Positions 3,429 to 61,000 of a DNA stretch of 64,000 bases are shown here, one piece after another. The stretch is from Escherichia phage KKP 3954. Under the pieces are notes generated by a model. The model was not told where the DNA came from, searched no databases, and saw nothing but the letters and a program-made list of their open reading frames with translations. Every line of letters starts with the position of its first letter. The first letter of the stretch is position 1. The stretch lies in the sequence record OR067838.1; one strand, given 5' to 3'. The position numbers and the translations under genes are program-made.

Positions 3429-3642
3429 GCTGTATACGCTCGACAATAATAATAGTTTGCGGGATCTCGTTTTCTACTACTAACAAGGCTTTTTTCTGTG
3501 TGATAGATATTTTAACACGTTGTAAAGTAGCGGTAAAATCTTTCATTTCATTATGCGCGGATTTAGTACAATGCCAGATCTCAGGTTTACCAACTTGCAA
3601 GCCGCGTAAAAATTCCGTTTTACCTGTCTTATTCGTGATCAT
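3406..3642 (-). CDS. Hypothetical early protein
   Basis: ORF track 3406..3651; ATG at 3642. Confidence 0.5.
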   Translation of the reverse strand: MITNKTGKTEFLRGLQVGKPEIWHCTKSAHNEMKDFTATLQRVKISITQKKALLVVENEIPQTIIIVERIQHENRNHY

Positions 3643-3652
3643 TTGTTTCACC

Positions 3653-3757
3653 TTAGCCGATACCGTGGGAAGATAGGATCATGTTAGCCATAGTTGCAAC
3701 CACTCCAACCGATAACGCCAGGCCCACTATTACAACCGTGAAAATTTTCTCTAACAT
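3653..3757 (-). CDS. Hydrophobic micro-protein (34 aa, single predicted TM segment)
   Basis: Not in ORF track (under 60 aa); ATG 3757 behind early promoter and leader; translation MLEKIFTVVIVGLALSVGVVATMANMILSSHGIG. Confidence 0.4.
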   Translation of the reverse strand: MLEKIFTVVIVGLALSVGVVATMANMILSSHGIG

Positions 3758-5695: not shown

Positions 5696-5854
5696 TTACC
5701 AACGTAAAACAAGTACGCCAACTGATGCAACGGCGGCGATCTCATGTAAGGAGGAAGGTCGCGCGGTGTCATAGTAGGTACCGATAATAGCAATAGCGGC
5801 AACGGCGGCAATATCGGTAATGATTTTTTCTTGTTTTGTTGTGATAGTGGTCAT
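5696..5854 (-). CDS. Hydrophobic small protein (52 aa)
   Basis: Not in ORF track; ATG 5854 behind promoter and leader at about 5870-5930. Confidence 0.4.
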   Translation of the reverse strand: MTTITTKQEKIITDIAAVAAIAIIGTYYDTARPSSLHEIAAVASVGVLVLRW

Positions 5855-10254: not shown

Positions 10255-10330
10255 TCTACCACCTTACAAATAGCGGGAACTATTCCCGCTTTATGTAACA
10301 TATTAACAAATTATTCGTTAATGTCAAGCC

Positions 10331-10603
10331 TTAAAGCAAAAACGCTACATCTTGCGCTTTTAGTGTAGTATCAACCATTTTTGGGCTTTTATAATCAACA
10401 AAACGCGCGGTTTTTTCAATAGCAAAACCGAGATAATCTTGTTTATTGAATTTACATTCTTTCTTAAATGTTTCCCGCGCCACGGTGATCGCTGCGTCCA
10501 GGGATAAACGCCCGTCAATGTTGATATTTGCGAAAGATCCGCCACCGCTCATAGGTTTACCAGTGGTGCCAGCTACGATCATTGTTGCGCTATATGATGC
10601 CAT
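10331..10603 (-). CDS. Hypothetical early protein
   Basis: ORF track 10331..10663 starts inside the leader hairpin; start moved to ATG 10603. Confidence 0.5.
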   Translation of the reverse strand: MASYSATMIVAGTTGKPMSGGGSFANINIDGRLSLDAAITVARETFKKECKFNKQDYLGFAIEKTARFVDYKSPKMVDTTLKAQDVAFLL

Positions 10604-10626
10604 GATTATAATCTCTCTTCTGTTGT

Positions 10627-10650
10627 GAGCGGCTGGACCATTCCGCCGCC
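10627..10650 (-). other. Conserved GC stem-loop in the 5-prime leader of early transcripts (example copy; family consensus GGCGGCAATGGTGCCGC with compensatory variants)
   Basis: More than 20 copies between promoter -10 and SD; stem changes are compensatory (e.g. CGGGAACTATTCCCG, CGGGAAACCATTTCCCG). Confidence 0.6.
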
Positions 10651-10661
10651 CTATGTGATAC

Positions 10662-10689
10662 ATCTTATCAGGTTGTTGGTTGTTGTCAA
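10662..10689 (-). promoter_or_regulatory. Early promoter of the conserved family (TTGACA, 16 nt spacer, TAAGAT)
   Basis: Hexamers on minus strand upstream of leader hairpin 10627-10650. Confidence 0.55.
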
Positions 10690-10695
10690 TACTTT

Positions 10696-10893
10696 TTATT
10701 CTATTCCTGCAATCTGATTAACGCGTTTGCATTTTGTAGCGTGCTGGTCTTCTGTAATTACTCCCATTTCTAACAGTGAATCAATGAAAGATAAAACCGT
10801 TTCATGATCATCCTGGGGATGACTGAACTCAGTAAAACCGTTTACTACCACGTTTATTTGTCCAGCTTTCGCCACAATGTGCAATGTTGCCAT
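10696..10893 (-). CDS. Hypothetical early protein (about 65 aa)
   Basis: ORF track 10696..10983; start moved to ATG 10893 after the leader hairpin; SD GGAG. Confidence 0.5.
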   Translation of the reverse strand: MATLHIVAKAGQINVVVNGFTEFSHPQDDHETVLSFIDSLLEMGVITEDQHATKCKRVNQIAGIE

Positions 10894-11080
10894 GATCTTA
10901 ACTCCAAATAGTGAGCGGCACCATTGCCGCGCTACGTGGTAAATATTATGCCGCCACCTGGCGAACGTCAACCACTTTTTCAATCTTTTTTATTTTCTTT
11001 TTGCTTGCTATATATAAAGGAAAGGGCTATCATCTTTCTACCGCGCCAACCAGGGCGCACAACAAAGAAAGGGCGACACC

Positions 11081-11347
11081 ATGACAACTACTACATTACA
11101 CCTTATGCACTCATTGGGCTGGCAAGGCGGCACGGTGCACCAGGTAGCAAGCGCAACAGGCTTAAAGGTTGAAACCGTTCTCAACCTGGGCGATCATAAA
11201 GTGGAAGAGATAGAACATTTTGATCCGTTCGCTGATGGTTATTTATGGGCTTGCAGTGGCGGCGGGGAAAGCAAGATCCCGCCAGCGGCGCGGGGCGATA
11301 TGCATTTTTGGTTAGGTGTCCTTTCCTGGCAAGAAAACAAAAAATAA
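11081..11347 (+). CDS. Hypothetical protein in a GC-rich island (atypical composition, possible moron)
   Basis: ORF track; only plus-strand gene in the first 18 kb; local GC clearly above the genome background. Confidence 0.45.
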   Translation: MTTTTLHLMHSLGWQGGTVHQVASATGLKVETVLNLGDHKVEEIEHFDPFADGYLWACSGGGESKIPPAARGDMHFWLGVLSWQENKK

Positions 11348-11349
11348 TC

Positions 11350-11378
11350 TTGACAAGCCCAGGGATCGGGCTTATACT
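11350..11378 (+). promoter_or_regulatory. Near-consensus sigma70 promoter (TTGACA, 17 nt spacer, TATACT) followed by a GC-rich structured segment of about 110 nt
   Basis: Hexamers seen directly; same GGG(A)CTTATACT -10 context recurs at 46759-46787. Confidence 0.5.
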
Positions 11379-11719
11379 GTTTTACATACAGAAGAGGAAG
11401 CGCCACCCCACGGCGTAAAGGCGGGGCTAACATACCAGGGCGCTGGTTGGAAGGTTGATCGCCGGTAGGCTGGGCGCTATATATTTGTAAAGAAATGTAA
11501 AGATAAAATAATCGCTTGCTTTCCTGGCTGGATCTGTTATTCTTATTACATGGCGAGGGGATACGGGAACGCGAGACAAACACCGCCCCTGCGCGTCATT
11601 CTCTAAATGAGAATGATTATCATTTACCTTATTGAATAAGAATCAATCTCATTTATAAACTTAAATGCGAATCATTATCATTTGCATTTCCATATGAGAA
11701 CTCTTCTCATTCTCACCTG

Positions 11720-11960
11720 CATAAATTTTTGTAAACTTTAAATTTTGCTTTTGTATTTTCATTTTTGTAAAAGCAAAAAAACTTTAAATACTGTGGGCGC
11801 GCAAAATTTTTAAAATTTTCCTTGACTTTTGAGTTTTGTTTTGTATCTAACATTTTAAGATAATTTTCCTAAACTTTAAATTTTGGTTTTCAACTTTCAC
11901 TTTTGTAAATTCTTAAAAAGTTTAAATAATTTGAGGAATTTTTGAGATAACAGGTAGTGG
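11720..11960. repeat. AT-rich region with two imperfect direct repeats of about 65 bp (each with AAACTTTAAATTTTG and TTTTGTAAA) and a TTTGAGATAAC direct repeat
   Basis: Repeats read directly in the sequence; no ORFs; lies between the two minus-strand gene clusters. Confidence 0.45.
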
Positions 11961-12060
11961 TAATTTGAGATAACCTTTAATCTTGTTGGTAAACCTTCAG
12001 GAACCCACCTAGATCGAATCCTAGAAAGGTCAACTGAAAAAGACAAGTGTTTGTATAGGA

Positions 12061-12096
12061 CAAAATAATAGGCTCTCTACGGTGCTGTAGGAGCCT
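12061..12096 (-). terminator. Rho-independent terminator downstream of the NADAR gene
   Basis: Hairpin GGCTCTCTAC..GTAGGAGCC followed by T-rich tract on minus strand. Confidence 0.5.
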
Positions 12097-12151
12097 TATT
12101 TCTGTGCTACAAAGTGGCACCTTTGTTCTAAAAATGAAAAAAGTTAAAATA

Positions 12152-12694
12152 TCACAAATATCGTCTTTGCGGTATTTTGTCTGGGAAAAGTATTTCGATC
12201 AGTTTATTATGATATTTGCCTAAAAGATTCTGCCCTTTCCAAGTGGCAGGGTTGAGCACCCCTGGTTCATACATCCCCATTCCAATTCCGTAAACCTTAT
12301 CGTAGGGGCTTGCTTCAACAAACGTTTTGTATTGGTAAAGGTGCAAGTCTGCATACAAATCTGGATTCTGTATATATTTCAAGCATAAACCTCGCATAAC
12401 AATACGCTCACGGTTCTCTTCCCACACGTTGTTATCAAAATCCGACACTGCCCTACCCATACGTTTGTAATAAGCTTGTTTCCTCTCGTTGTCACGTATA
12501 GTCGAGTGATCAAGGATAGCTGCTGCAATCGCATGATCCTTGAACAGCAAAGCCTTACGCCACATCATGTATTGCTCAACACAACAGAAAGTCTCATTGT
12601 AACCTGGTTCGGTTTCTGTAAAGGGTGCAATATACCAATTACTAAAAACATCTTTATGTGAAAAGAAGAATACATATTCGTCAGTTATTCTCAT
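12152..12694 (-). CDS. NADAR-domain (YbiA-like, DUF1768) protein; candidate ADP-ribose-processing enzyme
   Basis: 180 aa; FFF..FSNW..PF, EQ..M..KA.LF and NP.L motifs typical of the YbiA/NADAR fold. Confidence 0.6.
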   Translation of the reverse strand: MRITDEYVFFFSHKDVFSNWYIAPFTETEPGYNETFCCVEQYMMWRKALLFKDHAIAAAILDHSTIRDNERKQAYYKRMGRAVSDFDNNVWEENRERIVMRGLCLKYIQNPDLYADLHLYQYKTFVEASPYDKVYGIGMGMYEPGVLNPATWKGQNLLGKYHNKLIEILFPDKIPQRRYL

Positions 12695-12870
12695 TTTTTC
12701 ATACCTTCTAAGACTTTAGCTTGCCCGTCTTGAAAAGCTTTCATCAGAACTATCTTAAGATTGACTTCCAAACGTTCTTCATCCTCTTTATAACAATCCA
12801 ACACTGCTTTAAGTTCATCATAGTGGTTCAGAATAGGTTTAAAGATTTCATGATCTGCTAAACGTGCCAT
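12691..12870 (-). CDS. Hypothetical protein (about 59 aa)
   Basis: ORF track 12691..12906; start moved to ATG 12870 with SD AAGGAG. Confidence 0.5.
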   Translation of the reverse strand: MARLADHEIFKPILNHYDELKAVLDCYKEDEERLEVNLKIVLMKAFQDGQAKVLEGMKK

Positions 12871-12883
12871 AGTTTCTCCTTTG

Positions 12884-13249
12884 TTAATCCATCCACCAGT
12901 AGCCATAAACTGCGTCTGCGTCGATGAGTTTGTGTTTGTTGTTCCGCATGTAGTCTAAGATAAGTAGACGTTTATTGTATCTAGAGAGATTATGACCCTC
13001 TTTTCCGCCATAGTCAAAATATTTTGCAAGATCTTTACACTCAAACAAAATCAGTTCGGGAGTTTCTTCACACTGGTCTGTCTGGTACACTTGACGAATG
13101 ATCATGTATACATCGTCGTCTTCCGCTAAATGCTCTACTGGTCCACATCCAGCAGGAACAAATTCATAGTCCCATCTGATCAGATGTTTCTCTACTGCTT
13201 CAAAGAAGTCCATTCTTTCGTTGCGCATAATTTGAACGTCAACTAACAT
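12884..13249 (-). CDS. Hypothetical protein
   Basis: ORF track; ATG 13249 with SD AGGAGGA; contains an in-frame GTATAC at 13106-13111 with no break. Confidence 0.55.
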   Translation of the reverse strand: MLVDVQIMRNERMDFFEAVEKHLIRWDYEFVPAGCGPVEHLAEDDDVYMIIRQVYQTDQCEETPELILFECKDLAKYFDYGGKEGHNLSRYNKRLLILDYMRNNKHKLIDADAVYGYWWMD

Positions 13250-14234
13250 GTTTCCTCCTGTAATGTTCCACCATAAAGTTTATAAATGTTTTGTATTGAG
13301 GCCATGCAAGATAACTCTACTGTTTCTGTGTAGCCATCTGGCATAGAATATTTGCTCACTGCTTCCGTGTGAAGGACACGCTTACAACGCTTTTCTGCAT
13401 CTTTGCATTGCTTCACAGTAGGGAAGTGCCACACTTGGCTCTGTTTCATAGTAAACACATTATGACTATTTTGTTCTTTGATACGGCGATCACTACTATT
13501 GGCAATACCAAACTTCAAAGCACAGAGAAGATTTTGTTCATCGTAGATATAGTTGATGTATGCCTGTTGTTGTGTATGCCCTTTACACTGCGGACAACCA
13601 CGCCCCTTATGTAATAAGTGGTCAGCATTCCCTATTTGCTCCCCGTGATCCTTACATCCATATTTAAACTCTCCTGTTGAGGAAGGTTTACTAATCCACT
13701 CCATCCAGATATATCCTTTACTTTCTAAACCTTTTCTCACCTTGTAAGTGATCTGATCTTTTGTGTAACGGTAAACTCTAGTATACAACGACAAGGGATA
13801 ATCCCTTTTTTAAGATCGTTCCCTGCAATGTAAAATTTACCATCACACACTCCTGCTTGTACGTATTCATCATGAGAACAAACAGGACATTCAACCATCC
13901 AGAGAATATGACTCCCTTTACGTTTGCCTGTATTGGTGAAAATAGTACCAGGTTTAAACTTTCCTGTGTTAATGAAATCTTTTATGTGCTGATCGTCTGT
14001 CTTACCTCCTTTCCCAACTCCTTTCCCAATTGCACAGACAGGACAACCAGCACGACCAGTTTTAAAGTTTTTAAATGTTGTAGTGTTCCATTCATGAGCA
14101 TACTGACAACGATTGATCATTTTCGTGTGTTGTCCTGTAAACGGCTCAACAATTCCAATAATCTCAATCCCTTTAGCAGCAGCAATAGGTTGACACTCTT
14201 CAATATATTGTTCAATACTCTTCTTTACTGGCAT
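13243..14234 (-). CDS. Zn-finger plus T5orf172 (MUG113-like) domain protein; split into track ORFs 13737..14243 and 13243..13794 by an apparent 1-nt deletion at GTATAC 13781-13786
   Basis: N-terminal CxxC pairs; C-terminal LKFGIANSSDRRIKEQN resembles the T5orf172 core; the two ORFs join after a -1 shift inside the overlap. Confidence 0.45.
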
Positions 14235-14311
14235 ATCTAACAATTATCTCCCTATTAAACTGAAATCAATATAACAAAACCCGCCGAAGCGGGTTTAATA
14301 AGGGAGCCTTA

Positions 14312-15453
14312 TTAGAACACGCTACCCAGTGTGGTGGAACGTTGTGTTACAGGCTCCAGCACCACTCGCAGAGTGTTACCTGGTGTAGTGCTCGTCACCA
14401 GAATCTTACCACCTTCAATCAGATCACAAGTTAGACCATCACCCGTTGCACATAGATCAATATGTGGATCACCATCTTCGTCCAGGATAACATAACTGTT
14501 GGTTTCCATTGCTTCCACTTCATCATCTTTCAAACTTTGTAGATAGATGTTCAGGGAACAAGCGCCCGACAAAAACTTAGTAGGGGTGAAGTCGTGCCAG
14601 TTATTGATCCAATTCACCTTCAAGGTTTTGCCATTAGCTACGATAGAAGCCACATTCCATTTAGCATCGTTCCCTAAAGAAATACCCATCATTTCAAGAC
14701 ATTCTTTAAAAGTCATTTTTGGATAGAAATTCAATTCTTCTACAATGCCTTGAATAACATCGAAAGACAACTCTGTGCTAACATCCCATAAACGTTGGAA
14801 GTTATCTACGTGCTTTTTATTTACCAAGTTCTTATCCAAGTAATCTAACATAGTTTCACTAGACAGTTTATCGTAATTGAAACTGTAGTAGATACGACTA
14901 GGACGGTTTACAAAATATTCCGAGATATAGCCACTATTTTTAGTGAGGATGTAAAGTTTATTTCCACTTCCTGTTCCATCCAACAAGGTCAACAGTGCTT
15001 CCTGATCTTCTTTCTTAGCGTATACACTTTATCAAACTCGTCAAATAAAACAACAGCACGATCTGTAATTTTACTCATAAATTCTAAGAATCCAGCATCT
15101 GTGTAAGGCTGTGTCACCAAAATGGTTGGAATACCTAAACCTTCTGTGGACATTAGGGACATGCTAATCAGTTTAGCTAACATCGTCTTACCACTGCCCT
15201 TTGTCCCTGTCAGTAACACCCCAGTATTTTTACCTTCTTTACTACGACGAGCAAATGTTTTAATAACATGTGCGGCGCGGTCTTTAGTTTCCCCATAAAG
15301 AGTGTTCGGAAGAGAGAAACTTTCGCCACGCACTAAAGAGTAGTTACCGTGCGGATCGCAGTTGACAACCCAAACTCCAGCAGGAAGTTTATTAGCTTCA
15401 ACACCATATTCCTTATTTACAACAGCCACATCTCCAAAAATAGTGTATTTCAT
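14312..15453 (-). CDS. P-loop NTPase (AAA-type ATPase); split into track ORFs 14989..15507 and 14312..14992 by an apparent 1-nt deletion at GTATAC 15020-15025
   Basis: Walker A GTKGSGKT and Walker B VVLFDEFD; start at ATG 15453 with SD AAGGAG; downstream ORF begins on TTG without an SD and continues in the -1 frame. Confidence 0.55.
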
Positions 15454-15478
15454 TAAAACGTTTCTCCTTTTAAAATAA

Positions 15479-15811
15479 TTACTGTAAACTTTGCAGTTTT
15501 TTCTCACTCTTAATATTCTTGATTAATAAATACTCTCCTCCAGGTGCATCTTTGTATTGTTTAATAGCTACTATTTCATTTTTGCAAGTAGCTATAATCG
15601 AATAAAAAGGACGTTCCGTGTTATCTTCTTTTCCTGTATATGCCTCAACATCTTTGCACTCTTCTAGAACACCATTCCCAGGTGTATAGTAAAACTTGTT
15701 GCCTGTGATCACAACATCTTTACCAATATCCGTTTTAACTGCTACAAATTTTTGAGCGTAAGTGGTGAAGCTTACGGTAGCCAGCAATGTGGCTAAGATT
15801 AATTTTTTCAT
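15479..15811 (-). CDS. Small secreted protein (signal peptide)
   Basis: ORF track 15479..15841; ATG 15811; N-terminus MKKLILATLLATVSFTTYA. Confidence 0.55.
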   Translation of the reverse strand: MKKLILATLLATVSFTTYAQKFVAVKTDIGKDVVITGNKFYYTPGNGVLEECKDVEAYTGKEDNTERPFYSIIATCKNEIVAIKQYKDAPGGEYLLIKNIKSEKKLQSLQ

Positions 15812-19873: not shown

Positions 19874-20076
19874 ATGTTAGTCAGTGAAATACTACCTGAC
19901 TCTAATGGTAATCAGATCACTGTTGATTGGTTTCCTGGTATTAATGGTATACACTAGATCTAACTGCTGAATGGTCTGGTGATATTTATGGAGAAGGTGT
20001 ATTATCATTGTCTACAGAACAAATGATCATCCTTCGTGACTTCTTAATTAGTTTAGATCTAGGAGAAAACAAATGA
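19874..20076 (+). CDS. Small hypothetical protein, apparently interrupted by a 1-nt deletion at GTATAC 19947-19952
   Basis: ATG 19874 with SD AGGAGAG; frame stops at 19955 while the -1 frame runs to a TGA overlapping the next ATG; break window 19945-19954. Confidence 0.4.
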
Positions 20077-23315: not shown

Positions 23316-24908
23316 GTGTCTACACAATTGAGTTTTACACCTACCGAGGAACAATACGCTATTGAAAGCGGGTATAAAGAAAATCGTTTCGTTACAATTC
23401 AAGCTAAATCTGGATCAGGTAAAACGTCAACACTGTATATGTTGGCTAATGGCACAAATGATAGTATTCTATACTTGGCGTTTAACAAAAGTATGGCAGA
23501 GGAAGCTCGACGTAAAATGCCGCCTAATGTTATGTGCCGAACGCTACATTCTATCTGCTACCAGCGTCTTCCACAAAACCTTCGACACAAATTGTCTCGT
23601 CCAGAAGGTCAATATGTTAACGTAGCTGGAACTGGTAGTGAGATTGCTAAAAAATTCAAGATTCAGAACTTGATCGATAAGAATGGTAAAGTGCTACTGA
23701 CTCGTGCAATGATCGGGTTAATGGTAAAACAAACTTTAGCTAAATACGAGTTTTCTGACGATGAACATATTGGACATAAACATTTTCCTAAAGTGCATAT
23801 GTCAGATCTTAAACGTAAGAACATCAACGAACAAAAACTTATTAACGAAGTTGTTAAATATGCGAAGCAACTTTGGCGTGAGCGTATTGATCCTAAATCA
23901 GAAACCATTATGACTCATGACACCTATGTGAAACTCTTTGAATTGAGTAAAGAAGATTTAGGATATGATATTATTTTTGGAGATGAATTCCAGGATGTTA
24001 ACCCTGCATTCCTGTCTATCCTTCGCAATGCTAAATCGGCTAAACGTATTGTTGTTGTGGGTGATGAGTTTCAGAGTATTTATCAGTTCCGTGGAAGCCA
24101 GAACATGATGAAGCAAACGGCTACATATGGGGTTGAGTTGCCTCTGACAGCTTGTTTTCGCTTTGGTCCTAAAGTTGCGGACATTGCTAATGCGATCCTT
24201 TCTGATCGCTCACCTCTGAAGCATCCGCTGGTAGGGAAAGGTTATGATACTGTCACTGGAAGTTTTCATTCTGATGTGGTAGATTATAGTAAACCTTACA
24301 CCATTATTTTCCGTAAGAATTTGACCCTGTTGCTCGAAGCTATGGACCGAATCGCTAACGGAGAAGAGATTATTATTAACGTAGATACCAAAGATTTCAT
24401 TTCTATGGTTGATAGTGTTAATGCTTTACGTAGAGGTGATTTGGACAAAGTTAAGCATGAGACAGTTCTACCTTACACTTCTTGGGAAGAATTTGTAGAG
24501 TGTGCAGAATCAGATCCTGATGCAAAACGACTTTTAAACATTGTTGTTTCTGGTAAAGCTAATAATATTGCATACACTTTACGTATGCACCGTAACTCTC
24601 CAACGGCTAAAGTTACTTTAACTACAGCCCACAAATCAAAAGGTTTGGAATGGGATCAGGTTATTGTTGCAAATGACTTCCCTTCTAATTACGATAAGAA
24701 GGGTGAGTGGGTAGGTCTTGAAGAATCAGAACGAAATCTTCTGTATGTTGCACATACACGTTGTATTAAATGTCTGCAATGGAACCGAACTGTTCAAGAG
24801 ATTTTAGACATGCATCGTTTAGGTAAGAGCACGGCTCCTGTATCTGAAGAAGATAAGCTTATAGCTGCCCTTGCTCGTAAGATTAATCAAATCAGAGAGG
24901 ATCGTTAA
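23316..24908 (+). CDS. Superfamily 1 DNA helicase (UvrD/Rep/Dda-like)
   Basis: Walker A AKSGSGKT, motif II GDEFQDVN, motif III VVGDEFQSIYQFRG, C-terminal TAHKSKGLEWD. Confidence 0.8.
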   Translation: MSTQLSFTPTEEQYAIESGYKENRFVTIQAKSGSGKTSTLYMLANGTNDSILYLAFNKSMAEEARRKMPPNVMCRTLHSICYQRLPQNLRHKLSRPEGQYVNVAGTGSEIAKKFKIQNLIDKNGKVLLTRAMIGLMVKQTLAKYEFSDDEHIGHKHFPKVHMSDLKRKNINEQKLINEVVKYAKQLWRERIDPKSETIMTHDTYVKLFELSKEDLGYDIIFGDEFQDVNPAFLSILRNAKSAKRIVVVGDEFQSIYQFRGSQNMMKQTATYGVELPLTACFRFGPKVADIANAILSDRSPLKHPLVGKGYDTVTGSFHSDVVDYSKPYTIIFRKNLTLLLEAMDRIANGEEIIINVDTKDFISMVDSVNALRRGDLDKVKHETVLPYTSWEEFVECAESDPDAKRLLNIVVSGKANNIAYTLRMHRNSPTAKVTLTTAHKSKGLEWDQVIVANDFPSNYDKKGEWVGLEESERNLLYVAHTRCIKCLQWNRTVQEILDMHRLGKSTAPVSEEDKLIAALARKINQIREDR

Positions 24909-25160
24909 ATGGCAGGGTATCACATAACAGACATTAAGAAACAACCTTATGGCAGCATAGAAAAGATTAAAGAGGAAGTAGAAGAACTTTTTGATGCTGT
25001 TGAGCAGGATTGCAAAATAATGCAACTTGTTGAATTGTCAGATATTATAGGGGCTGTCGAGGGAGTTTTAGAACAACAGTTCCCAGATATGACTTTACAA
25101 GATTTAATCATTATGTCCAACATTACTAAACGCGCTTTCCGCACAGGAGGAAGGTCATGA
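24909..25160 (+). CDS. Hypothetical protein
   Basis: ORF track. Confidence 0.5.
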   Translation: MAGYHITDIKKQPYGSIEKIKEEVEELFDAVEQDCKIMQLVELSDIIGAVEGVLEQQFPDMTLQDLIIMSNITKRAFRTGGRS

Positions 25161-25714
25161 ACACAGGTGTGATTGCCGAAGCCATCCAGAGTTATGGACG
25201 CTTTGCTGAAATGTTAGATGTTCCTTATTTAGTGGATGCAGATATTTTGGCATTCACACTGCCACCTGGCAAAGAAGATGCTCCTTTGGGGCATCCTAAT
25301 GGGAAGTTTTATGTTGCCAGTGCCGAGCAATCATTCTTGCAAATGGAAAAGGATGGCTACGAGTTTATCGCTGGTCATCCCTACATGGCCCTGACACCAT
25401 GTTACCGCACAGAGGAAGTGTTGGATGATTCTCACTTCAACATCTTCTTGAAGCTGGAGTTGATTGAGTTCTATCCCAGCTTTGGTGAAGTGAAAGAGTA
25501 TGCCGAAGAAATGCGATACTTCTTCTGGACCTACTACAAAGTCCAAACAAGAATTGTAGAAACAGAAATAGGGCTTGACGTGGAAGACATGAATGGTTTA
25601 GAATTAGGGTCATTCGGAACAAGATTGTCCCCACAAGGTCATCCATATATTTATGCAACAGCCATAGCCGAACCTCGTGCATCTATGGCAATTAACAGGA
25701 GGAATCATGATTAA
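25157..25714 (+). CDS. Hypothetical protein
   Basis: ORF track; SD AGGAGGAAGG. Confidence 0.55.
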   Translation: MNTGVIAEAIQSYGRFAEMLDVPYLVDADILAFTLPPGKEDAPLGHPNGKFYVASAEQSFLQMEKDGYEFIAGHPYMALTPCYRTEEVLDDSHFNIFLKLELIEFYPSFGEVKEYAEEMRYFFWTYYKVQTRIVETEIGLDVEDMNGLELGSFGTRLSPQGHPYIYATAIAEPRASMAINRRNHD

Positions 25715-27092
25715 TAAATTTGCCCGTAAACAGGAAGTTGCTGAAGCAGCACGTCGCGCTGGTGTGTATGACAAATTGTGTGAAGGTATTGTGAAGGTGT
25801 ATGGCTGGGAGGGAGAAGATGATCCAACCTGTTCAGGTGATTTTGCAATGAACGATATGACCTTCCCATATATTTCCTACAATGCCTCCACTGGTGAAAT
25901 AAACGGTGCAACCAGCACCAGTGTTGATCGTTATCCAGACGCAGAACAAACCACAGGAGGTTACATGTTAGATTTGATTCTTAAGAAATCAGGGTTATTG
26001 GGAATCGAAGACGTTTTCGTAGATGCAGATAGTTTATCATTAGGAGATGTTGTTAAACTACTGGTAGACTTTAGATTTGCAACAGGTAAAAGCTTCTGGA
26101 AGCCAGAAGATGCTGAACGTTTGAAGACAATCGATCCAAGTATGTATGAACTGCCACAATATAAAGATAAACAATTCCGCAAGGTTATCTTCTTTGATCG
26201 TCAAGCAGGCTTAGATGCAATGCATATTGAAGTTGGGGATTTACCACGCCCACACTCTGCTGCTACTGGTGATCGCGGCCTTGTAGAAGTCACGGCTCAA
26301 GAATTTAAAAATATGTTTGCTGCGAAATACGATGAAGCTGCGCCTGTGCCAAGTATTGAGGAGCAAGAGGAAGAACAGTTTGTAGCGGAAGATACTGCAT
26401 TTGAATATCTGCCGAACACAGGTGTTATGCCTTCGGAAGATTTCGTGCAGGTTCGCTTCAACAATGGTCAAACAGATGTTGCTAAGGGAACAGTATTCAC
26501 TTGGAATATCGACAATCTGGAAGAGTGGGCGATTAAAGAATACTTCATTCTCCCGCGCACGGCAAAATACAACTATAATAATGGTGGACACCGCCCTTGT
26601 GGTGGTCACGTAGAAGTTCTCTTTCGTGACGGAACTACGGATAGTGGATCGGCTACGCATTTCACTTGGGGTCATGTTGGATATGATCGGGATATTGTTG
26701 GTTGGCTTCCAACTAACAACCCTAAACCACGTTACCGTAAGCCTCGTAAGAAGCCTCCGGTAGGTAAGAAGAGTGTCGTTCGTGTCCTCTACACTACGCA
26801 ACAGACCTACACATTTAAAAATGTGGTAGACGTGCAAGTAACCGAGGAGCGAGTTTATATCCAATATGATCGTGAAGTTACAGAGGGTATCAAAGAATCG
26901 GTTACTACCGAAATTGAAAATAAGCTTGTTATGGCAATCATTGTGGAAGAAAGTAAAGTAGAGAACGGTAAAGCCTATACTGTTCGTGATAGCTTCTTGC
27001 GTAATATCGATGGAACCTGGGATTACAATGGACACGATGGGACCGCTGTGAAGAACGGTAAGATCATGGGAAGACAATTCCTCTCCAAATGA
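25707..27092 (+). CDS. Hypothetical protein (461 aa)
   Basis: ORF track 25677..27092; ATG 25707 with SD AGGAGG; antisense ORF 26241..27077 judged spurious. Confidence 0.6.
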   Translation: MINKFARKQEVAEAARRAGVYDKLCEGIVKVYGWEGEDDPTCSGDFAMNDMTFPYISYNASTGEINGATSTSVDRYPDAEQTTGGYMLDLILKKSGLLGIEDVFVDADSLSLGDVVKLLVDFRFATGKSFWKPEDAERLKTIDPSMYELPQYKDKQFRKVIFFDRQAGLDAMHIEVGDLPRPHSAATGDRGLVEVTAQEFKNMFAAKYDEAAPVPSIEEQEEEQFVAEDTAFEYLPNTGVMPSEDFVQVRFNNGQTDVAKGTVFTWNIDNLEEWAIKEYFILPRTAKYNYNNGGHRPCGGHVEVLFRDGTTDSGSATHFTWGHVGYDRDIVGWLPTNNPKPRYRKPRKKPPVGKKSVVRVLYTTQQTYTFKNVVDVQVTEERVYIQYDREVTEGIKESVTTEIENKLVMAIIVEESKVENGKAYTVRDSFLRNIDGTWDYNGHDGTAVKNGKIMGRQFLSK

Positions 27093-27100
27093 TAAAACTT

Positions 27101-27127
27101 AAAGGCGCACTTTGCGCCTTTTTTGAT
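27101..27127 (+). terminator. Rho-independent terminator
   Basis: AAAGGCGCACTTTGCGCCTTTTTTGA hairpin plus T-run. Confidence 0.65.
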
Positions 27128-27195
27128 TTCCCTCAAAGCTTTTTTCGGTTGAAAGAGGTAGAATAATAGTTCTACTCACAAAATAAGGATTAATA

Positions 27196-29010
27196 ATGAA
27201 AGATTTATACCAAGATGTTTTTTCTTTTTTAGATCGCACTTCAGAAACATACACTAGAGAGAATGCAAACAAACCTTCCCACCTTGTTAACACGCACAGG
27301 GATCTCTTGGCGGGGATTTTAAGCAAACATATGGCAATGACACAGATACTGCCAAAAAACTTGTCAGAATGGCATACAGAAGGTTTTGGACATATTCACG
27401 ACTTGGATTATCTGCTCTCTCCTCTTACAAACTGTTGTCTTGTTAATTATCAAGATATGTTAGAGAATGGTTTTAAGATCGGTGCTGCACAGATAGAAAA
27501 ACCAAAATCTATTGGAGTAGCTACTACAGTGCTAACTCAAATCATCCAAGCTGTTGCCTCCAGTCAGTATGGAGGTCAGACGTGTGCGCACATTGATAAA
27601 GGTCTTAGTCCTTATGTTGAAGCCAGTTTCCTTAAAAACATGGAGATAACCAAACGTCGCTACGGTTGTTATGCAAGGAAAGAAGCCCTAGAAATGACCG
27701 AACAAGATGTATATGACGCTATGCAAACTCTTTTGTATCAGGTTAACACTTTAATGAGTGTTAATGGACAATCTCCTTTTATTACAATCAGTATGGGTCT
27801 GGATACCTCTGTTTTTGGCAGAATGATCACAGCTAACTATCTTAAAGTGCATAGTAACGGTCTAGGTAAAGATCATGTAACGCCTGTATTCCCTAAAGTT
27901 ATTTTCTTTTTACAAGAAGGTGTTAACATGAAACCTAGTGATCCTAACTACGACCTTAAGCAACAAGCTTTGGCATGTTGTGCTGATCGTATTTATCCAG
28001 ATTTTATTTCTGTTCCTTTGAACAAAGAAGTTACGGGATCAGCAGATGGTACCGTTACGAGTATGGGTTGTCGTTCCTTTTTGTCATACTATGCCACCGA
28101 ACAAGGAGAAAAATATGATGGACGATTCAACCTTGGAGTAGTTTCTATCAACTTGCCTCTGATTGCTGCGGAAGCGAGAAGTAAAGGAGAATCTTTCACC
28201 GATCTTCTTAATAAACATATGGAGATAGCCTACGATGCTCACATGCTACGTGTAAACCGTATCAGACATACCAAAGCATCTGAAAACCCTATTCTTTTCA
28301 TGGAAGGGGCTTTAGCGCGTTTAAATGCCAACGATGAAATTGGTGCTTTGTTTGAAGGTGGTTATGCTTCTATTAGTATTGGTTATGTAGGTCTTGCCGA
28401 AGCTTTGGAAATCCTTTATCCAGAGGAAAAAGATAAAAAGGAACTAGGTAAAAACATTCTGCAACATATGAAAGATATGTGTGCTGTGTTTAAAGAACGA
28501 TCTAAGTTGGCATTTAGTCTTTATGGAACTCCAGCAGAATCCTTGTGCTATAAATTTGCAACAGCTTTAAATGAAAAATATCCAGGTCTGGTAGAAAGAG
28601 ACTATCTTACTAATTCTTTTCATCAACCTGTATGGTTGGTAACAAATCCTTTTGAAAAATGGGATTATGAAGCAGGTTTTGCACAGATTAGCAATGGTGG
28701 TAACATAAGTTATGTCGAAACACCAAACTTAAAGAATAACTTAGAAGCTTTGGAGACTTTAGTAGACTACGCTTATGAACATATTCACTATTTTGGTATT
28801 AATCAGCCCGTGGATCAATGCTTTAAGTGTGGTTTTCATGGAGAATTTAAGGCAACGGCTAAAGGGTTTGAGTGTCCTAATTGTGGCAACCATGAAGAAG
28901 AAACTATTTCTGTAGTTAGACGTGTATCAGGGTATCTTTCTGCCCCTAATTCACGGCCTTATAACAAAGGTAAAATGCAGGAAGTTTTGCAAAGGGAGAA
29001 ACATCTTTGA
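27196..29010 (+). CDS. nrdD: Anaerobic ribonucleoside-triphosphate reductase (class III RNR large subunit)
   Basis: 604 aa; C-terminal Zn ribbon CFKCGF..CPNCGNHE and glycyl-radical motif RRVSGYLS. Confidence 0.85.
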   Translation: MKDLYQDVFSFLDRTSETYTRENANKPSHLVNTHRDLLAGILSKHMAMTQILPKNLSEWHTEGFGHIHDLDYLLSPLTNCCLVNYQDMLENGFKIGAAQIEKPKSIGVATTVLTQIIQAVASSQYGGQTCAHIDKGLSPYVEASFLKNMEITKRRYGCYARKEALEMTEQDVYDAMQTLLYQVNTLMSVNGQSPFITISMGLDTSVFGRMITANYLKVHSNGLGKDHVTPVFPKVIFFLQEGVNMKPSDPNYDLKQQALACCADRIYPDFISVPLNKEVTGSADGTVTSMGCRSFLSYYATEQGEKYDGRFNLGVVSINLPLIAAEARSKGESFTDLLNKHMEIAYDAHMLRVNRIRHTKASENPILFMEGALARLNANDEIGALFEGGYASISIGYVGLAEALEILYPEEKDKKELGKNILQHMKDMCAVFKERSKLAFSLYGTPAESLCYKFATALNEKYPGLVERDYLTNSFHQPVWLVTNPFEKWDYEAGFAQISNGGNISYVETPNLKNNLEALETLVDYAYEHIHYFGINQPVDQCFKCGFHGEFKATAKGFECPNCGNHEEETISVVRRVSGYLSAPNSRPYNKGKMQEVLQREKHL

Positions 29011-36885: not shown

Positions 36886-37077
36886 GAATCCGTATCTATA
36901 TAATTGATGAAGACATTGGTGTCCGTTATGATGACGAAAAACGATTCGCACCGATGGGAGGCATATACCCCCAAGTGTTCTAGCAGTTTGTCGTGATTGT
37001 TATATTTATGAAGGTTGTCGTAACTTCCGTAAATTCGAACTCCTTGCAGATATTGACTTCAATGAGGAGGAGGAGTA
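36882..37077 (+). CDS. Small Zn-ribbon-like protein, apparently interrupted by a 1-nt deletion in a C5 run (36968-36972)
   Basis: ATGA coupling at both ends; 33-codon ORF stops at 36981 while the -1 frame encodes CRDCYIYEGC..EEEE up to a stop abutting the next ATG. Confidence 0.35.
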
Positions 37078-44949: not shown

Positions 44950-46728
44950 GTGTCGCACATTATAACTAAATATGGATTTGATGTTGATCTTAGCAAGGAA
45001 GGACATACAGGTTGTCCGCGCTGCATGAAAAATGGCAAGGATCGCTCTCGTAATAACCTGATGGTTTACGGATTAGATTCTAATGGAGAGCATAAAGGTG
45101 CTAAGTGCTTTGCGTGTGAATACACTATTCCTAGCGTAGAATGGTTACGAGAAAATGGTGAAGTTTTAGAAGAAGAGGAGGAGATTGTGGGTTCGGAATT
45201 TAATAAACAGATTCATCGTAAAATTGTTCAAGAAACATCAACCAACCCACGTGGTTATCGAGGCATTAAAGAAAAAGTTTCATCTTTCTATGGTGTTCGT
45301 TATGAATACCGTCAGGAAGGGGATCAGATGGTAGTAGAAAGTTGTTTATATCCGACTACCATCGGTAAAGAATTGGTTGGTTTTAAGCGTCGTATTCATC
45401 CTAAAGATTTCAGTAAACCTATTGGTCAAGTAGGTAAAGATGTAGATCTTTTTGGACAAATTCGTTTTGCAGACCGTTCTCATACTGTTGTAATTACAGG
45501 TGGTGAACACGATGCTCTGGCAGCTTATCAAATGCTATCTGAAAACTTGGACAGTAAATATGAGCTTCCAGCCGTAGTAAGTGGCACAACTGGTGAAACC
45601 AGTATGTATAAACAAGTTCAGGCACAATATCCTTTCTTTGAAAAATTTAAGAAGATTATTGTTTGCATGGATAACGACAAAGCAGGTAATGAGGCATTTG
45701 AAAATATTGTTAAGGTGCTGCCTCGTAACAAAGTCTACCGTATGCAGATGGATCTTAAGGATGCCAATCAGTATCTGGAAGAAGGCCGTGCAAAAGATTT
45801 CGTAAAAGCTTTTTGGAGTGCTCGTCTATACACCCCAGCAGGTGTTTATGCTTCTAATGTCTTGTATGAAGCTGCATTGGAATGCTTGGAATCCAAGATG
45901 ATTACCTTGCCTCCTTTTATGCGTGTTGCTGCAAACATGTTGGGTGGTGGTTTAGTAGAAGAAGAGATTACAGTCATCCTGGCAAAGACCAGTATCGGTA
46001 AAACTTTGATGGTGAACGAGATCACCAAACATATTATTGTTGCACACCCAGAACATACCCTAGGTATTCTGTCCTTGGAAGCGACTTATAAAAAGTATTC
46101 TCGTAACCTGTTATCCTCTTTCCTACACATTCCTCTACACAGGAAAACACCGGAAGAGAAATTTCAAATCTTGGAAGAGAATAAAGAAAAAATCCTAGAT
46201 TTTTACGAAAGAGAAGATGGATCACCACGTTTTTACGTGTGTGATGATCGTGGAGCAGATGTGGAGTCTATCAAAGAAAAAGTTTTGGAGATGATCATCT
46301 ATTTTGGAGTAACAATTCTTGTTATCGACCCTTATTCTGATTTGCTTTCTGGTATGGATGTTCAAGCCCAGGAAGAGTTAGCAACATGGTTGAAGCGAAT
46401 CATGAAAGAGTATGCTATAACTATTATCGTCATCTCACACGTTAAGAAGTCAGCTAATGGTGGCAATGAGCACTTAACAGAGGACGATGCAATGGGTAGT
46501 AGTTTCTTGGCTAAAGGTGCTGGTATTACCTTGGCTTTGGAACGAGATAAGGCTGCTGAAGATCCTGTAGAACGTAATACAACTCATTGCTTTATCCTAA
46601 AAAACCGTGAGTTCTCGGAGACTGGTCCAGCAGGGCAGTTTTACTATGACATTAGAACTGCAACTCTTCACGACAAAGAGCAGTATTTTAACAACCCTGC
46701 TAACTTACCTACGGATAGCAACTACTAA
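44950..46728 (+). CDS. Bifunctional DNA primase-helicase (T7 gp4-like: Zn ribbon, TOPRIM, DnaB-like helicase)
   Basis: CPRC..C..C zinc ribbon, TOPRIM blocks VVITGGEHD and DNDKAG, Walker A AKTSIGKT, Walker B ILVIDPYSD. Confidence 0.8.
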   Translation: MSHIITKYGFDVDLSKEGHTGCPRCMKNGKDRSRNNLMVYGLDSNGEHKGAKCFACEYTIPSVEWLRENGEVLEEEEEIVGSEFNKQIHRKIVQETSTNPRGYRGIKEKVSSFYGVRYEYRQEGDQMVVESCLYPTTIGKELVGFKRRIHPKDFSKPIGQVGKDVDLFGQIRFADRSHTVVITGGEHDALAAYQMLSENLDSKYELPAVVSGTTGETSMYKQVQAQYPFFEKFKKIIVCMDNDKAGNEAFENIVKVLPRNKVYRMQMDLKDANQYLEEGRAKDFVKAFWSARLYTPAGVYASNVLYEAALECLESKMITLPPFMRVAANMLGGGLVEEEITVILAKTSIGKTLMVNEITKHIIVAHPEHTLGILSLEATYKKYSRNLLSSFLHIPLHRKTPEEKFQILEENKEKILDFYEREDGSPRFYVCDDRGADVESIKEKVLEMIIYFGVTILVIDPYSDLLSGMDVQAQEELATWLKRIMKEYAITIIVISHVKKSANGGNEHLTEDDAMGSSFLAKGAGITLALERDKAAEDPVERNTTHCFILKNREFSETGPAGQFYYDIRTATLHDKEQYFNNPANLPTDSNY

Positions 46729-46748
46729 GGGCTTCGGCCCTTTTATTA
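46727..46748 (+). terminator. Rho-independent terminator after the primase-helicase gene
   Basis: AAGGGCTTCGGCCCTT hairpin plus TTTATT. Confidence 0.65.
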
Positions 46749-46758
46749 AAAATACCTG

Positions 46759-46787
46759 TTGACAACTTTGCGGAAGGGACTTATACT
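46759..46787 (+). promoter_or_regulatory. Sigma70-like promoter (TTGACA, 17 nt spacer, TATACT)
   Basis: Hexamers seen directly; -10 context GGGACTTATACT as at 11350-11378. Confidence 0.55.
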
Positions 46788-46820
46788 TGTCTCATCAACC
46801 AAACAAGAGGAGAAGTAAAA

Positions 46821-47252
46821 ATGCGTATGACAATCGATCTGAATGCAAAAGTTAAAGCTGCTGGTGCTCTGGGTGCTGGTGTTATTAAACACAAACAAGC
46901 GTTGGCATTTGCCATCCCACACATGATTGTTGAGGATCATCCTGAAGAGTTTGCTGTAAAAGTTGTTGAGAACAATGTCTCTGTTATTGAACATCTTCCA
47001 ACTGGACGTTCTTACCGTGTTGTTTCTTCTAAAGGTTTTCGTTTCGATGTAAGCCCTTCTTTCACAAAAGGTGCTGGTCGTAGTAAAGTGGGTATTCTTT
47101 CTTACAAATATTATATCGATAAAGTTGCAGATGGTGTTGCATTCTGTCGTGTAAGTGAAGGTAAAGTAGATATCATCTTTAAAAATACCAAAAACATGGT
47201 TATTTCTGATGATGGTAAAGTGGACCTCACTATTGAGTTCGCTAACAACTAA
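46821..47252 (+). CDS. Hypothetical protein
   Basis: ORF track; SD AGAGGAGAAG. Confidence 0.55.
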   Translation: MRMTIDLNAKVKAAGALGAGVIKHKQALAFAIPHMIVEDHPEEFAVKVVENNVSVIEHLPTGRSYRVVSSKGFRFDVSPSFTKGAGRSKVGILSYKYYIDKVADGVAFCRVSEGKVDIIFKNTKNMVISDDGKVDLTIEFANN

Positions 47253-47261
47253 GGAGGACTA

Positions 47262-48056
47262 TTGAGCAAGTTGAACACACTTGATCAATATTACACTAAC
47301 CCCGCTTATGCGGGGTTCTTATGTGATAAGATCAAAGAAATTTTTGGAGAGGAAGCTAACTACGTAGAACCATCTGCGGGAGAAGGAGCTTTCTCTTCTT
47401 GTTTTAAAAACATAACTTCTTTTGATATTGACCCTAAGTTTGAAGATTGTATTGAGGCAGATTTTTTAGCTCAATCTGTTGAGTCTGTTGGTAGTGTAAC
47501 TGCTTTTGTCGGTAATCCTCCATTTGGAAAAAATGCTAGTCTTGCCATTAAATTCTTTAACCATTGTGCTGAAATGCTGGATAACGAAGGTGGTATTTGT
47601 TTTATCTTGCCTCGCACATTTCAAAAAATCTTTTTTGCACACAAACTAAATCCCCATATGCATCTTCTTTACGAAGAAGAATGTCCAAAAGGATCTTTTA
47701 TTCTTCATGGAGAACCTTGGGATGTTCCTTGTGTATTCCAGATATGGATTAAACGCAACGAGAAGCGTTCTCCCGTTGTTTTAGGAGAGAATCGACTATT
47801 CGTATTAGGTAACAGTAAAGACTACGATATAGCCGTTAGGAGAGCGGGAGCAAGTGCAGGTAAAGTGTTATCAGAAGAAGATTCTTTATCTGAAGCATCT
47901 ACCTATTTTTTAAAAGCCTTGACTTCTGATCTTAAAACGCGTATCATTGAGGCTTACCCGTTACTTAAAGCTGAAGCTAGTAAAACTGCGGGAGTAAGAA
48001 GTTTAAGTTTAAAAGAACTTCAGTGGGTTCTGGAGAACATTAGAAAGGAGGAATAG
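47262..48056 (+). CDS. DNA N6-adenine methyltransferase (gamma-class-like)
   Basis: Motif I-like VEPSAGEGAF followed by motif IV GNPPFGKN; TTG start with SD AAGGAGG. Confidence 0.65.
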   Translation: MSKLNTLDQYYTNPAYAGFLCDKIKEIFGEEANYVEPSAGEGAFSSCFKNITSFDIDPKFEDCIEADFLAQSVESVGSVTAFVGNPPFGKNASLAIKFFNHCAEMLDNEGGICFILPRTFQKIFFAHKLNPHMHLLYEEECPKGSFILHGEPWDVPCVFQIWIKRNEKRSPVVLGENRLFVLGNSKDYDIAVRRAGASAGKVLSEEDSLSEASTYFLKALTSDLKTRIIEAYPLLKAEASKTAGVRSLSLKELQWVLENIRKEE

Positions 48057-58083: not shown

Positions 58084-61000
58084 TTAGGTTGTTGGCACAT
58101 CTACTACTGGCGTTGGGCGAATAACCGCAGTATTACCTACAGAAACATTACTGGAATCATTAGGTATGGTTTTAATTCTAACTCCAGCACTTGTAGGCGT
58201 TACAATTGGATCTGCAATGTCTATTTTAACTGGGTTAGTCCACGTATCATTATCTTGATAAGGTGCACGAGTAATAACTGTGTCCAAATCTGCTCCACCT
58301 ACGCCAGCACCAGGAATACGGATACGTGTCCCTGCTGACAGAGGGTAATGATACAACCAAGAAGCATTTGTTGCTGTCCCGTTAGGAGTCAAGTTCTGTG
58401 TCAGGAAGGTATCTCCTGCCTGTGTAGCTCGAATACCGAAAGCTGGGATATCTGGAATATATGCCCCACTTGTTGTTACAAGGAAGAACGTATTATCCGC
58501 CTTGACTATCATATCACCTTTGTCAAACTCTTTCCCTGTTGGGAAATGCATTCCATCAATGTTTCGACTAGGATTAGGCTCTAAGTAATAAACTTTGCCC
58601 GTTGTCCCTACAATAGCTCCAATACCACCTGCGATATTGGTATACATATTAGCTTCAACATTACAGTTGACACGATGAATATCCGAGTAACGGCAACGGC
58701 TCCACTGTGGACGACCAGTAACCATCGTCTTGCCATCTGGGTAACAGTTTACGTTAACCATTTCAAGAACAGATTTTTCTCTACGGAAGAATCCATCATA
58801 AAATGTCCCTGGACCAGATTCAGGTTGACCAACACAATCGAAGATATTACAGGTAATGTTAGACATTGAAAGCCAAGAAGCTATACCGAACAACTGCAAT
58901 GCAGCGCAACGAATATTTTCAAAGCTAACTCTGTTTTCATAACCTGGACCAGCGGAAACTCCCGCAAAAACACGCCCAGTTTTGGTGTGAATGTTACGAA
59001 CAGAATAGTTAAAGCATGGATTTGAAGGTCTGCCCTGTGCCGGAACTACCGGATTACCTTCTTCGTCCAGAACTGCGTTAGTTCCCCACTCCAAATAAAT
59101 CATACGGATATTACTTGCAAGTGTGCTACCGTCTGTTTTAGGCTCTCCATAAACACCGTCAATCGTAAAATCTTTACTTCCATACATTACAACTGCGCCA
59201 GTTGCCAAACCTGTCCCAACAGATACAGTCTGGTCTGGATCGCCATGAATGTTTTCGATAGAGATATTACGACCAACTTCTACATGGACAATCTGACGAC
59301 AACGTTTTGCAAAAACGTTACGAATTGTAATATTCTTGCAATATTGATCATCAGGGATTCCGTAACCATATGGTCCTTTACCAGCTACACCGATACCGAT
59401 ACCCCAGTTGGACAGAGGAATAGGAGCGTTAGTCCCATCGATATTAGACAGGTAAATATTCTCAATCACACAACCATCGTCATAATGTTTATTGATGACG
59501 TTCAGTTCTATTGCATCACCTTGCATGTCCATGAAGGTAAGGTTACGGAAGACACCACGTGTTACTGGTTCCCCTGTTCCTTGTTGAAGGATGCCATACA
59601 ACCCGTTTTTAAAAATACAGTTATCAATTTCAAAAATACCTGATATTGGGTTGCCTTGGAATACCAAGCTACCAACTTGACCTGCGCGAGGAGCACCGTC
59701 CCACAAACAATCGAACATGCGCACAGCACCACCCCAATACATAACACGAGAGTTACGGAAAGTTGTGCCTTCTACTGTAGCATTTTGCACACGATAGTCG
59801 CGTTGACCACGGAACACACCCCCACGCAAAGTGATACCTTGAATATCAAAAGAGCTTGTCGTGAAAGTCATATCGCAACCGTAAGCATCGAGAATCTTGC
59901 TTTTCGAAGCTTTTGCTGCTAACAGTGCCGCTTGGAAAGCTGCTTCTGGTGTGGTATATGTTGTTGTGTTGTTAGCAAATTCTGACAAGTAGACAACATC
60001 GAATAAATCGTTGTATGTTCCACCACGAGGGGTTAACAGTCCTTCTGTATTGGTCAGAACCCATGCATTTGGACCTAATCCACCGCTTGTCTCCAATGTA
60101 TCAGAGGCCAAAATACTTTTTGGTAAACTTCCAGCCCAACGATAACGACCAGCACCACGTCCAATCGTCTGATTTTTAGCTGTCAGAGTTACGTTATTAC
60201 CAAAGCTTGTAGGCAAATGAACAAACTGTCCACGTTCAACAGCTAGTGCAGAAAGATCTACAGACCCCCCAGAATAAGTCATTACTCCAGAAACAGACAA
60301 GGATGTTAAAGTTCCTGTGATGTTAGGAGGTAATGTGTAGGAAGACTGTGCTACTGGATCATACAGAGCTTTAATCCCTGTTAACGATTGACCTGCTGTT
60401 GCGTAAGCCACCTCATCATCTAACAAACCATATTTACGAGCAATAGTTTGCAGAGGGACTTTATCCATGCTTTCTGTTAGTTCTTCCGTTTTTGTTTCTA
60501 AACTAACAAGACGGTTCTCTAGATTAGGATCTGTATCTGCTGAAGCTACGATTTTACCAATATAAGCAAAAAGCTTGTTTGGTAGTCCTGTTGCAGGATC
60601 GTGTCCCAAAGGTTCAGATAAGATGATCTTACTATCTTCTATACGGAAAGCTTCTCCCAGAACCTGAATAACACCGTTGATAGTAACAATAGCACTGTCA
60701 AAAATATAAGGAGGACTAATTACTGTTTCATAACCCGTTGCACCAGAATATACCCACGGGGTGACTTCTGTTGCTAATTGTTCTGTTTTCAGTCCCCACA
60801 ATACCCAGTTATTATCCCCTACTGGAGAATACCTTGCATAGGGATTGGGTTTACCAATGTAGCATTAGGAGCATAATAATAACCGCTCAATACCCCATTC
60901 TGGAAATAACGCAGTTGGTTAAAAACCGTTTCATTTGTGCCTTGCGCCCAATCCAATGGACTTTTAAAGAAAAAGTTGTCAACAAGGGCTTTTCTCAGGG

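Follow-up and report, generated by a model that had tools for sequence, protein, structure and literature searches.

A probable T5orf172-family homing endonuclease gene with CapR-type zinc modules forms a mobile cassette beside an unrelated ATPase gene in Escherichia phage KKP 3954

In T-even phages, the GIY-YIG homing endonucleases I-TevI and the T4 Seg proteins are encoded by free-standing or intron-borne selfish genes that spread via cleavage and recombinational repair in co-infection. Homing endonuclease genes of such type act in phage-phage competition during co-infection, and I-TevI also represses its own promoter. The T5orf172 family, represented in Pfam by PF10544/PF13455, belongs to the GIY-YIG superfamily. 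T5orf172 homing endonucleases have been described in the Vibrio phage ICP1, where they include Gp165, Gp174 and others (PMC8096241; Barth 2023, PMC10448857), and a position beside a conserved gene is typical for the family (PMC10448857). Gp165 is among the proteins through which the CapR domain was defined (Netter 2021, PMC8096241), a domain named after CapR, the capsid-operon repressor of the V. cholerae satellite PLE, which represses the ICP1 capsid operon (PMC8096241); the zinc finger of I-TevI is noted in the same work (PMC8096241). Zinc-finger repeats of the CapR/DUF723/DUF4379-like type combined with a T5orf172 domain constitute the architecture reported by Barth et al. 2023 (PMC10448857). 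A further ICP1 protein, Odn, consists of a T5orf172 nuclease fused to a RepA_N DNA-binding domain and lets ICP1 inactivate PLE (PMC10448857).

A probable gene of this kind is present in Escherichia phage KKP 3954, a Phapecoctavirus with a genome of 149,856 bp, of which a stretch of 64,000 nucleotides (record OR067838.1; hereafter the window) was analysed. Relatives of the region are Phapecoctavirus genomes with 90-98.6% DNA identity, for example EF1-1 and tuntematon. In the deposited sequence, the open reading frames 13737-14243 and 13243-13794, both on the minus strand, overlap in two frames and meet at a GTATAC at 13781-13786. Removal of the extra TA at 13783-13784 yields a putative free-standing homing-endonuclease gene at 13243..14234 (-) that starts with the ATG at 14234 and encodes 329 aa. 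The initial annotation had placed the merged gene at 13243-14234 and the adjoining ATPase gene at 14312-15453, and both sets of coordinates are correct, the reading frames being restored by 2-base deletions. The depositor annotated four separate pieces, and the nuclease and ATPase fragments correspond exactly to the GenBank proteins WLW41326-WLW41329 of KKP 3954. In relatives the nuclease gene is intact, encodes 332 aa from an annotated TTG start equivalent to 14243 and is named 'endonuclease' or 'putative homing endonuclease'. After repair, the KKP 3954 protein is 100% identical to its EF1-1 counterpart, the genes differing at 3 nucleotides, all synonymous, and is near-identical to the P0001 protein, for which 100% identity is reported while one codon is non-synonymous against the P0001-encoding contigs. 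It matches PHROG 681 'endonuclease' with an E-value of 1.6e-62; NCBIfam gave nothing useful and PADLOC no match for the nuclease, and the window holds no paralogues of the nuclease or the ATPase. The gene that follows, at 12884..13249 (-), is conserved, encodes 121 aa and is a gp052 homologue. Two genes downstream of the endonuclease lies a NADAR-domain protein gene (12152-12694 (-), Pfam E 1.9e-35), which is called 'GTP cyclohydrolase II' in the annotation of some relatives.

The N-terminal two thirds of the endonuclease form a zinc-finger array. CxxC pairs had been noticed in this part of the protein from the letters alone and are indeed present, and the strongest domain of the protein, CapR, was absent from that first reading. 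Pfam CapR (PF21817) matches three stretches of the nuclease (E 8.4e-22, 77.6 bits, cut-off 24.2), as well as all 46 of 46 homologues. The AlphaFold model of the full protein (pLDDT 91.6) has three Zn-knuckle modules followed by a C-terminal domain. Module A (aa 1-70, 14025..14234 (-)) is composed of a helix and three strands, then C43..H47 ... C64xxC67; it is treble-clef-like and has a weak DUF4379 match (E 2e-4). Module B (aa 80-150, 13785..13997 (-)) is the CapR homology domain proper, containing C116xxC119 ... C148xC150, and includes most of the best PF21817 stretch at aa 85-151. This CxxC...CxC motif, N-terminal to the nuclease domain and readable in the sequence itself, is the published CapR motif (PMC8096241). 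Module C (aa 155-216, 13585..13770 (-)) again has a helix and three strands, then C193xxH196 ... C213xxC216.

The remaining part, aa 220-325 (13258..13575 (-)), is a predicted T5orf172/GIY-YIG-like nuclease domain. The T5orf172/MUG113-like core proposed for it by the initial annotation does not reach the Pfam cut-offs in this protein alone, with 16.3 bits for T5orf172 (PF10544; E 0.015, cut-off 20 bits) and 17.3 bits for MUG113 (E 0.007, cut-off 22.3 bits), both over aa 228-294, but it is upheld at the level of the family, where 28 of 46 homologues match T5orf172 at E<=0.01 (best 4.5e-5), and at the level of the fold. The AF2 model of the C-terminal domain alone (pLDDT 91.3, pTM 0.83) adopts a beta-beta-alpha-beta-alpha-alpha topology, with strands at 14-21, 27-35 and 52-60 and helices at 38-48, 64-77 and 98-110 of the domain, so that structure prediction on the repaired translation finds the T5orf172/GIY-YIG-like fold. 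Its beta-beta-alpha-beta-alpha core is shared with annotated T5orf172/GIY-YIG phage proteins in BFVD, where Foldseek retrieves 67 viral predicted structures at E<=1e-3, including a GIY-YIG domain protein (1.3e-7, TM 0.79), the 'homing endonuclease' of phage UB (1.3e-8) and a 'T5 Orf172 DNA-binding domain' protein (3.5e-5). Against the PDB, the same domain gives nothing at E<=1e-3, with Slx1 and UvrC at E about 2.4; the full-length model, a multi-domain protein resembling beads on a string, gives nothing significant, and the family profile finds a single chance match (E 1.3) among PDB sequences. Nine positions are invariant in 46 of 46 homologues (K240, G242, R250, Q254, E280, D299, G300, E303 and T304), and Y225 is kept in at least 90%. 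Judged by their placement, the conserved positions would be of the catalytic type, namely a Tyr in strand 1, K/Y-x-G in strand 2, an Arg in helix 1 and a metal-binding Glu.

Comparison of related genomes shows that the nuclease gene is a discrete, sharply bounded mobile cassette located between the ATPase terminator and the ribosome-binding site of the next gene. The window and phage nieznany are 98% identical in DNA up to 14309, the ATPase stop, and 96.8% identical from 13259 onward, with no detectable DNA similarity between these two points; the nieznany gene in the nuclease slot encodes 486 aa and is 36% identical. Across phages, the alleles in this slot have sizes of about 327-332, 390-408 and 465-486 aa and share 36-75% identity. 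Phage phiWec188 (LC739537) provides a natural empty site, in which the ATPase stop is followed by a terminator, 45 nt and the gp052 start, without an endonuclease (1166-1212 of the compared sequence), and in EP57 (OR544956) a deletion (801-2306 of the compared sequence) has joined the ATPase and the gene downstream of it into one reading frame. In the window, an intrinsic-terminator-like hairpin, AAACCCGCTTCGGCGGGTTT then a T-rich tail (14277..14296 (-)), with CTTCGG as its loop, separates the ATPase stop from the endonuclease start. The post-ATPase terminator (window 14253-14311) contains AAACCCGCTTCGGCGGGTTT in the window and in tuntematon and GATGCCCCGCAAGGGGCATTT in nieznany (3640-3730 of the compared sequence) and the empty-site phage phiWec188. 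As the terminator differs between cassette alleles, the 5' boundary of the window allele's cassette is placed right at the ATPase stop codon. The 3' boundary is marked by the ribosome-binding site and start of the gp052 homologue, which sit within the final bases of the endonuclease gene. The Phapecoctavirus ATPase/gp052 junction, with an empty site, at least three allele classes and one deletion, thus constitutes a clean natural set for T5orf172 homing in coliphages.

The neighbouring gene is split in the same manner, its open reading frames 14989-15507 and 14312-14992 meeting at a GTATAC at 15020-15025. Removal of the extra TA at 15021-15024 restores a conserved AAA+ ATPase of 379 aa at 14312..15453 (-), as intact in relatives, where it is annotated 'ATPase'. 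The Walker A/B ATPase recognized here at the outset is borne out by both motifs, GTKGSGKT at 15184-15207 (-) and VVLFDEFD at 15031-15054 (-), and by a Pfam AAA match above its cut-off (29.8 against 21.2 bits); PHROG 2376 matches at 6.6e-111, and the nearest solved relatives are, with weak matches, the classic-clade AAA proteins Rix7, AFG2 and p97. It had been proposed that the nuclease and this ATPase form a pair acting on host DNA or in phage-phage competition. A two-gene system of this kind, whether a defence or anti-defence module or a means of host-DNA attack, would fit the fact that the two genes adjoin on one strand throughout the sampled Stephanstirmvirinae, but we consider it hardly credible. 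The two genes evolve at decoupled rates, the ATPase being at least 99% identical in 62 phage records and the nuclease reaching this level in only 4; the nuclease is missing beside the ATPase in phiWec188, and a terminator-like hairpin separates the two genes in the window. ATPase homologues are found in Herelleviridae, jumbo phages and others, and the distant ones in Aeromonas and Enterococcus phages have no adjoining CapR/T5orf172 gene. PADLOC, blank for the nuclease, returns weak generic P-loop matches and nothing else for the ATPase, and nothing points to an action on host DNA. Since the ATPase is conserved in many phages that lack the nuclease, the two genes do not form a functional pair. 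The ATPase gene is an early gene, widely conserved and unrelated to the nuclease, of which it is a neighbour and not a partner. The arrangement is better explained by a homing endonuclease lodged next to a conserved gene than by a two-component system.

Taken together, the locus is probably a T5orf172-family free-standing homing endonuclease gene in a mobile cassette next to an unrelated ATPase gene, with frameshifts that are most likely nanopore errors. The protein has three independently folded Zn-finger modules of the CapR/DUF4379 type, followed by the beta-beta-alpha-beta-alpha T5orf172-type domain. The zinc modules would read a long asymmetric DNA target, and the C-terminal domain, with its conserved Tyr, Lys-x-Gly, Arg and Glu positions, may nick or cut the DNA. 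In a mixed infection, the enzyme would be expected to cleave phage genomes in which the cassette is missing or present as another allele, and recombinational repair could then copy the nuclease gene and flanking markers into the cut genomes. The homing-endonuclease-like character suspected from the start is supported by the homology to Gp165, the CapR/T5orf172 architecture and the behaviour of the cassette, and with it the suggested link to phage-phage competition. A different role is conceivable, in which the intact protein has been domesticated to bind specific DNA sequences and regulate phage genes, its nuclease domain being inactive or secondary. The Zn-finger array is the best-conserved and highest-scoring part of the protein, nearly all sampled members of the phage subfamily keep a gene in the slot, and CapR-type domains have been shown to bind promoter DNA (PMC8096241). 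Yet the expected catalytic residues are invariant in the 46 homologues, and allele replacement, the empty site and the deletion are the marks of a dispensable selfish gene and not of a fixed regulator, which makes domestication of the intact protein a very improbable explanation.

The frameshifts require separate consideration. The genes described at the outset as broken by GTATAC are indeed broken in the deposited sequence, but this is most likely a sequencing artefact and not true breakage. In the nuclease gene, the 2-nt TA insertion in the GTATAC at 13781..13786 falls between Zn modules B and C, and in the ATPase gene the TA insertion in the GTATAC at 15020..15025 directly follows Walker B. 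At both sites, 7 of 7 aligned related sequences covering them (EF1-1, tuntematon, three assembly contigs of 143-151 kb and two further Logan contigs) read GTAC. Because the genes are intact and the site is GTAC in every relative examined, it is the window that carries an extra TA. An exact search for the TA-containing junction in three public collections (viral, metagenome and genome) gave 0 matches. Further insertions at sites that read GTAC in relatives are located at 3432, 6861, 9750, 19947 and 38688; the site at 19947 is part of a tandem GTAC pair (19941-19952) whose first site is garbled by a 3-nt insertion at 19941-19943. At 60828, the GGAGTACC of relatives has become GGAGAATACC inside a 1017-aa tail-fibre gene, and a 1-nt insertion adjoins a GTAC at 5711-5716. 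In all, at least 8 sites reading GTAC in relatives have 2-3-nt insertions, each disrupting a conserved gene; most are TA (GTATAC), one is AA (GAATAC) and one is the 3-nt insertion. GTAC sites account for about nine of the roughly eleven indels that break genes in the window; 37 GTAC sites stay intact, and no flanking-sequence rule separating broken from intact sites was found. Two frame changes off GTAC also differ from all relatives: a GA insertion at 15502 (GTGA to GTGAGA, minus strand), which alters the C-terminal 14 aa encoded by the gene upstream of the ATPase gene, and a 1-nt deletion in a TA-rich run at 36968, which splits a 64-aa gene. Programmed frameshifting at GTATAC was rejected, as the sites are GTAC in relatives and lie in unrelated genes, and so was a Hi-C/fill-in library artefact, given one AA insertion, one 2-nt insertion at GTGA and the fact that most GTAC sites are left intact. 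As regards composition, GTAC is strongly depleted in the window (37 found against 172 +/- 13 expected from shuffles) and GTATAC is more frequent than expected (26 against 11.9), also once the seven window-specific ones are set aside; this suggests that the phage group has long avoided a restriction activity specific for GTAC.

A literature search for KKP 3954 found no paper and no read data, and its sequencing method is accordingly deduced from sister genomes. Phage genomes of the same laboratory and period were assembled from nanopore reads only (Rapid Barcoding, GridION, Guppy 6.3.8, Flye 2.8.1), with R9.4.1 flow cells stated for the host genome in one sister paper, and the sister-genome papers report no short reads and no polishing step. 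In the same laboratory's Salmonella phage KKP_3822 (OQ674104), compared with its 98.5% relative rutana, the terminase, tape-measure and DNA polymerase genes are split by small insertions, and the receptor-binding protein gene has many 1-2-nt insertions (affected stretches 13245-14563, 23935-27646, 45446-48014 and 10280-12760). Motif-specific consensus errors are documented for such nanopore assemblies (PMC6591954). With at least 8 GTAC sites hit and nanopore-only assemblies from the depositing laboratory, the frameshifts in KKP 3954 are most likely sequencing artefacts; both genes are therefore probably intact in the real phage, and at least nine window genes would be mis-annotated as fragments through systematic errors at GTAC. 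The insertions in KKP_3822 are not GTAC-specific, so the specificity in KKP 3954 needs its own cause, for example a modification of GTAC, to which it hints and which would be worth knowing for this phage group. A homologue of 'DNA N6-adenine methyltransferase' (47262-48053), a candidate GTAC methylase, has no Pfam match.

The insertions could instead be real. In KKP 3954, the endonuclease would then be pseudogenised and the ATPase broken, and two separate products might be expressed, a DNA-binding fragment of 165 aa resembling CapR and a Zn-finger-nuclease fragment, as a step towards domestication like that of PLE CapR. The frameshifts do stand in the deposited record, with the four fragments annotated separately, and homing endonuclease genes are known to decay and be co-opted (PMC8096241). 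Moreover, five Logan contigs carry an independent frameshift allele, A6 to A5, located 26 nt upstream of an intact GTAC and producing the same two-fragment split (for example SRR14721853, about 1920-1995 of the compared sequence), which shows that real decay of the endonuclease gene happens and agrees with the decay usual in such genes. Against a real origin in KKP 3954 itself, the GTAC sites affected include those in the 99%-conserved ATPase gene and the 1017-aa tail-fibre gene, one insertion is AA, the tandem pair is garbled by an extra 3 nt, and the junction occurs in no other contig. Neither half of the genes shows extra substitutions, the repaired ATPase gene differing from relatives by 22-23 synonymous and 3 non-synonymous codons spread over both sides of the site, and the laboratory's nanopore-only pipeline demonstrably splits essential genes in KKP_3822. 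Genuine insertions are thus unlikely. Even less probable is a more specific account, in which the TA insertions are in vivo scars of GTAC restriction that split the nuclease into a CapR-like protein and a Zn-finger-nuclease, or else basecalling errors caused by an undescribed GTAC modification. The scar version draws on the fact that cutting at G^TAC, filling in the TA overhang and joining the blunt ends again would turn GTAC into GTATAC exactly; if true, it would be a snapshot of the origin of a CapR-type regulator in a lineage strongly avoiding GTAC, and the modification version would reveal a GTAC-specific DNA modification of phage or host. Nanopore consensus error remains the preferred explanation, and the endonuclease is compared with known systems below in its repaired form.

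Among these, ICP1 Odn has the nuclease domain family in common with the KKP 3954 protein but a different DNA-binding domain, and its role is anti-satellite, with no satellite link seen here. I-TevI and the T4 Seg proteins likewise combine a modular nuclease domain with a DNA-binding region including a zinc finger, but the nuclease domain of I-TevI is N-terminal and that of the KKP 3954 protein C-terminal; the structural match of the latter to solved GIY-YIG domains is weak and non-significant. PLE CapR, the source of the name of PF21817, has the same CxxC...CxC Zn-finger DNA-binding domain and is a repressor without a nuclease domain, whereas the repaired gene and all intact orthologues keep the C-terminal nuclease domain; in the frameshifted reading, the one part that would resemble PLE CapR is the N-terminal fragment of 165 aa. 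The closest counterpart is ICP1 Gp165, which BLASTP matches at 3e-23 and which itself scores sub-threshold on Pfam T5orf172 (17.3 bits). Both proteins have repeated CapR-type Zn modules followed by a C-terminal T5orf172-type domain, and, like the ICP1 T5orf172 endonucleases, the KKP 3954 enzyme is encoded by a free-standing gene beside conserved genes at a boundary of genetic exchange. The two differ in that identity is about 30% and that three Zn modules are present here as opposed to four CapR stretches in Gp165; also, in contrast to the ICP1 proteins, the carrier is an E. coli Phapecoctavirus and the protein is known from sequence and models. By its sequence, the nuclease is of an already described kind, its family and architecture having been published in 2021-2023 and an identical protein being encoded by another published phage, EF1-1. 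On its own it therefore adds little biologically, as one more member of the family to which ICP1 Gp165 belongs.
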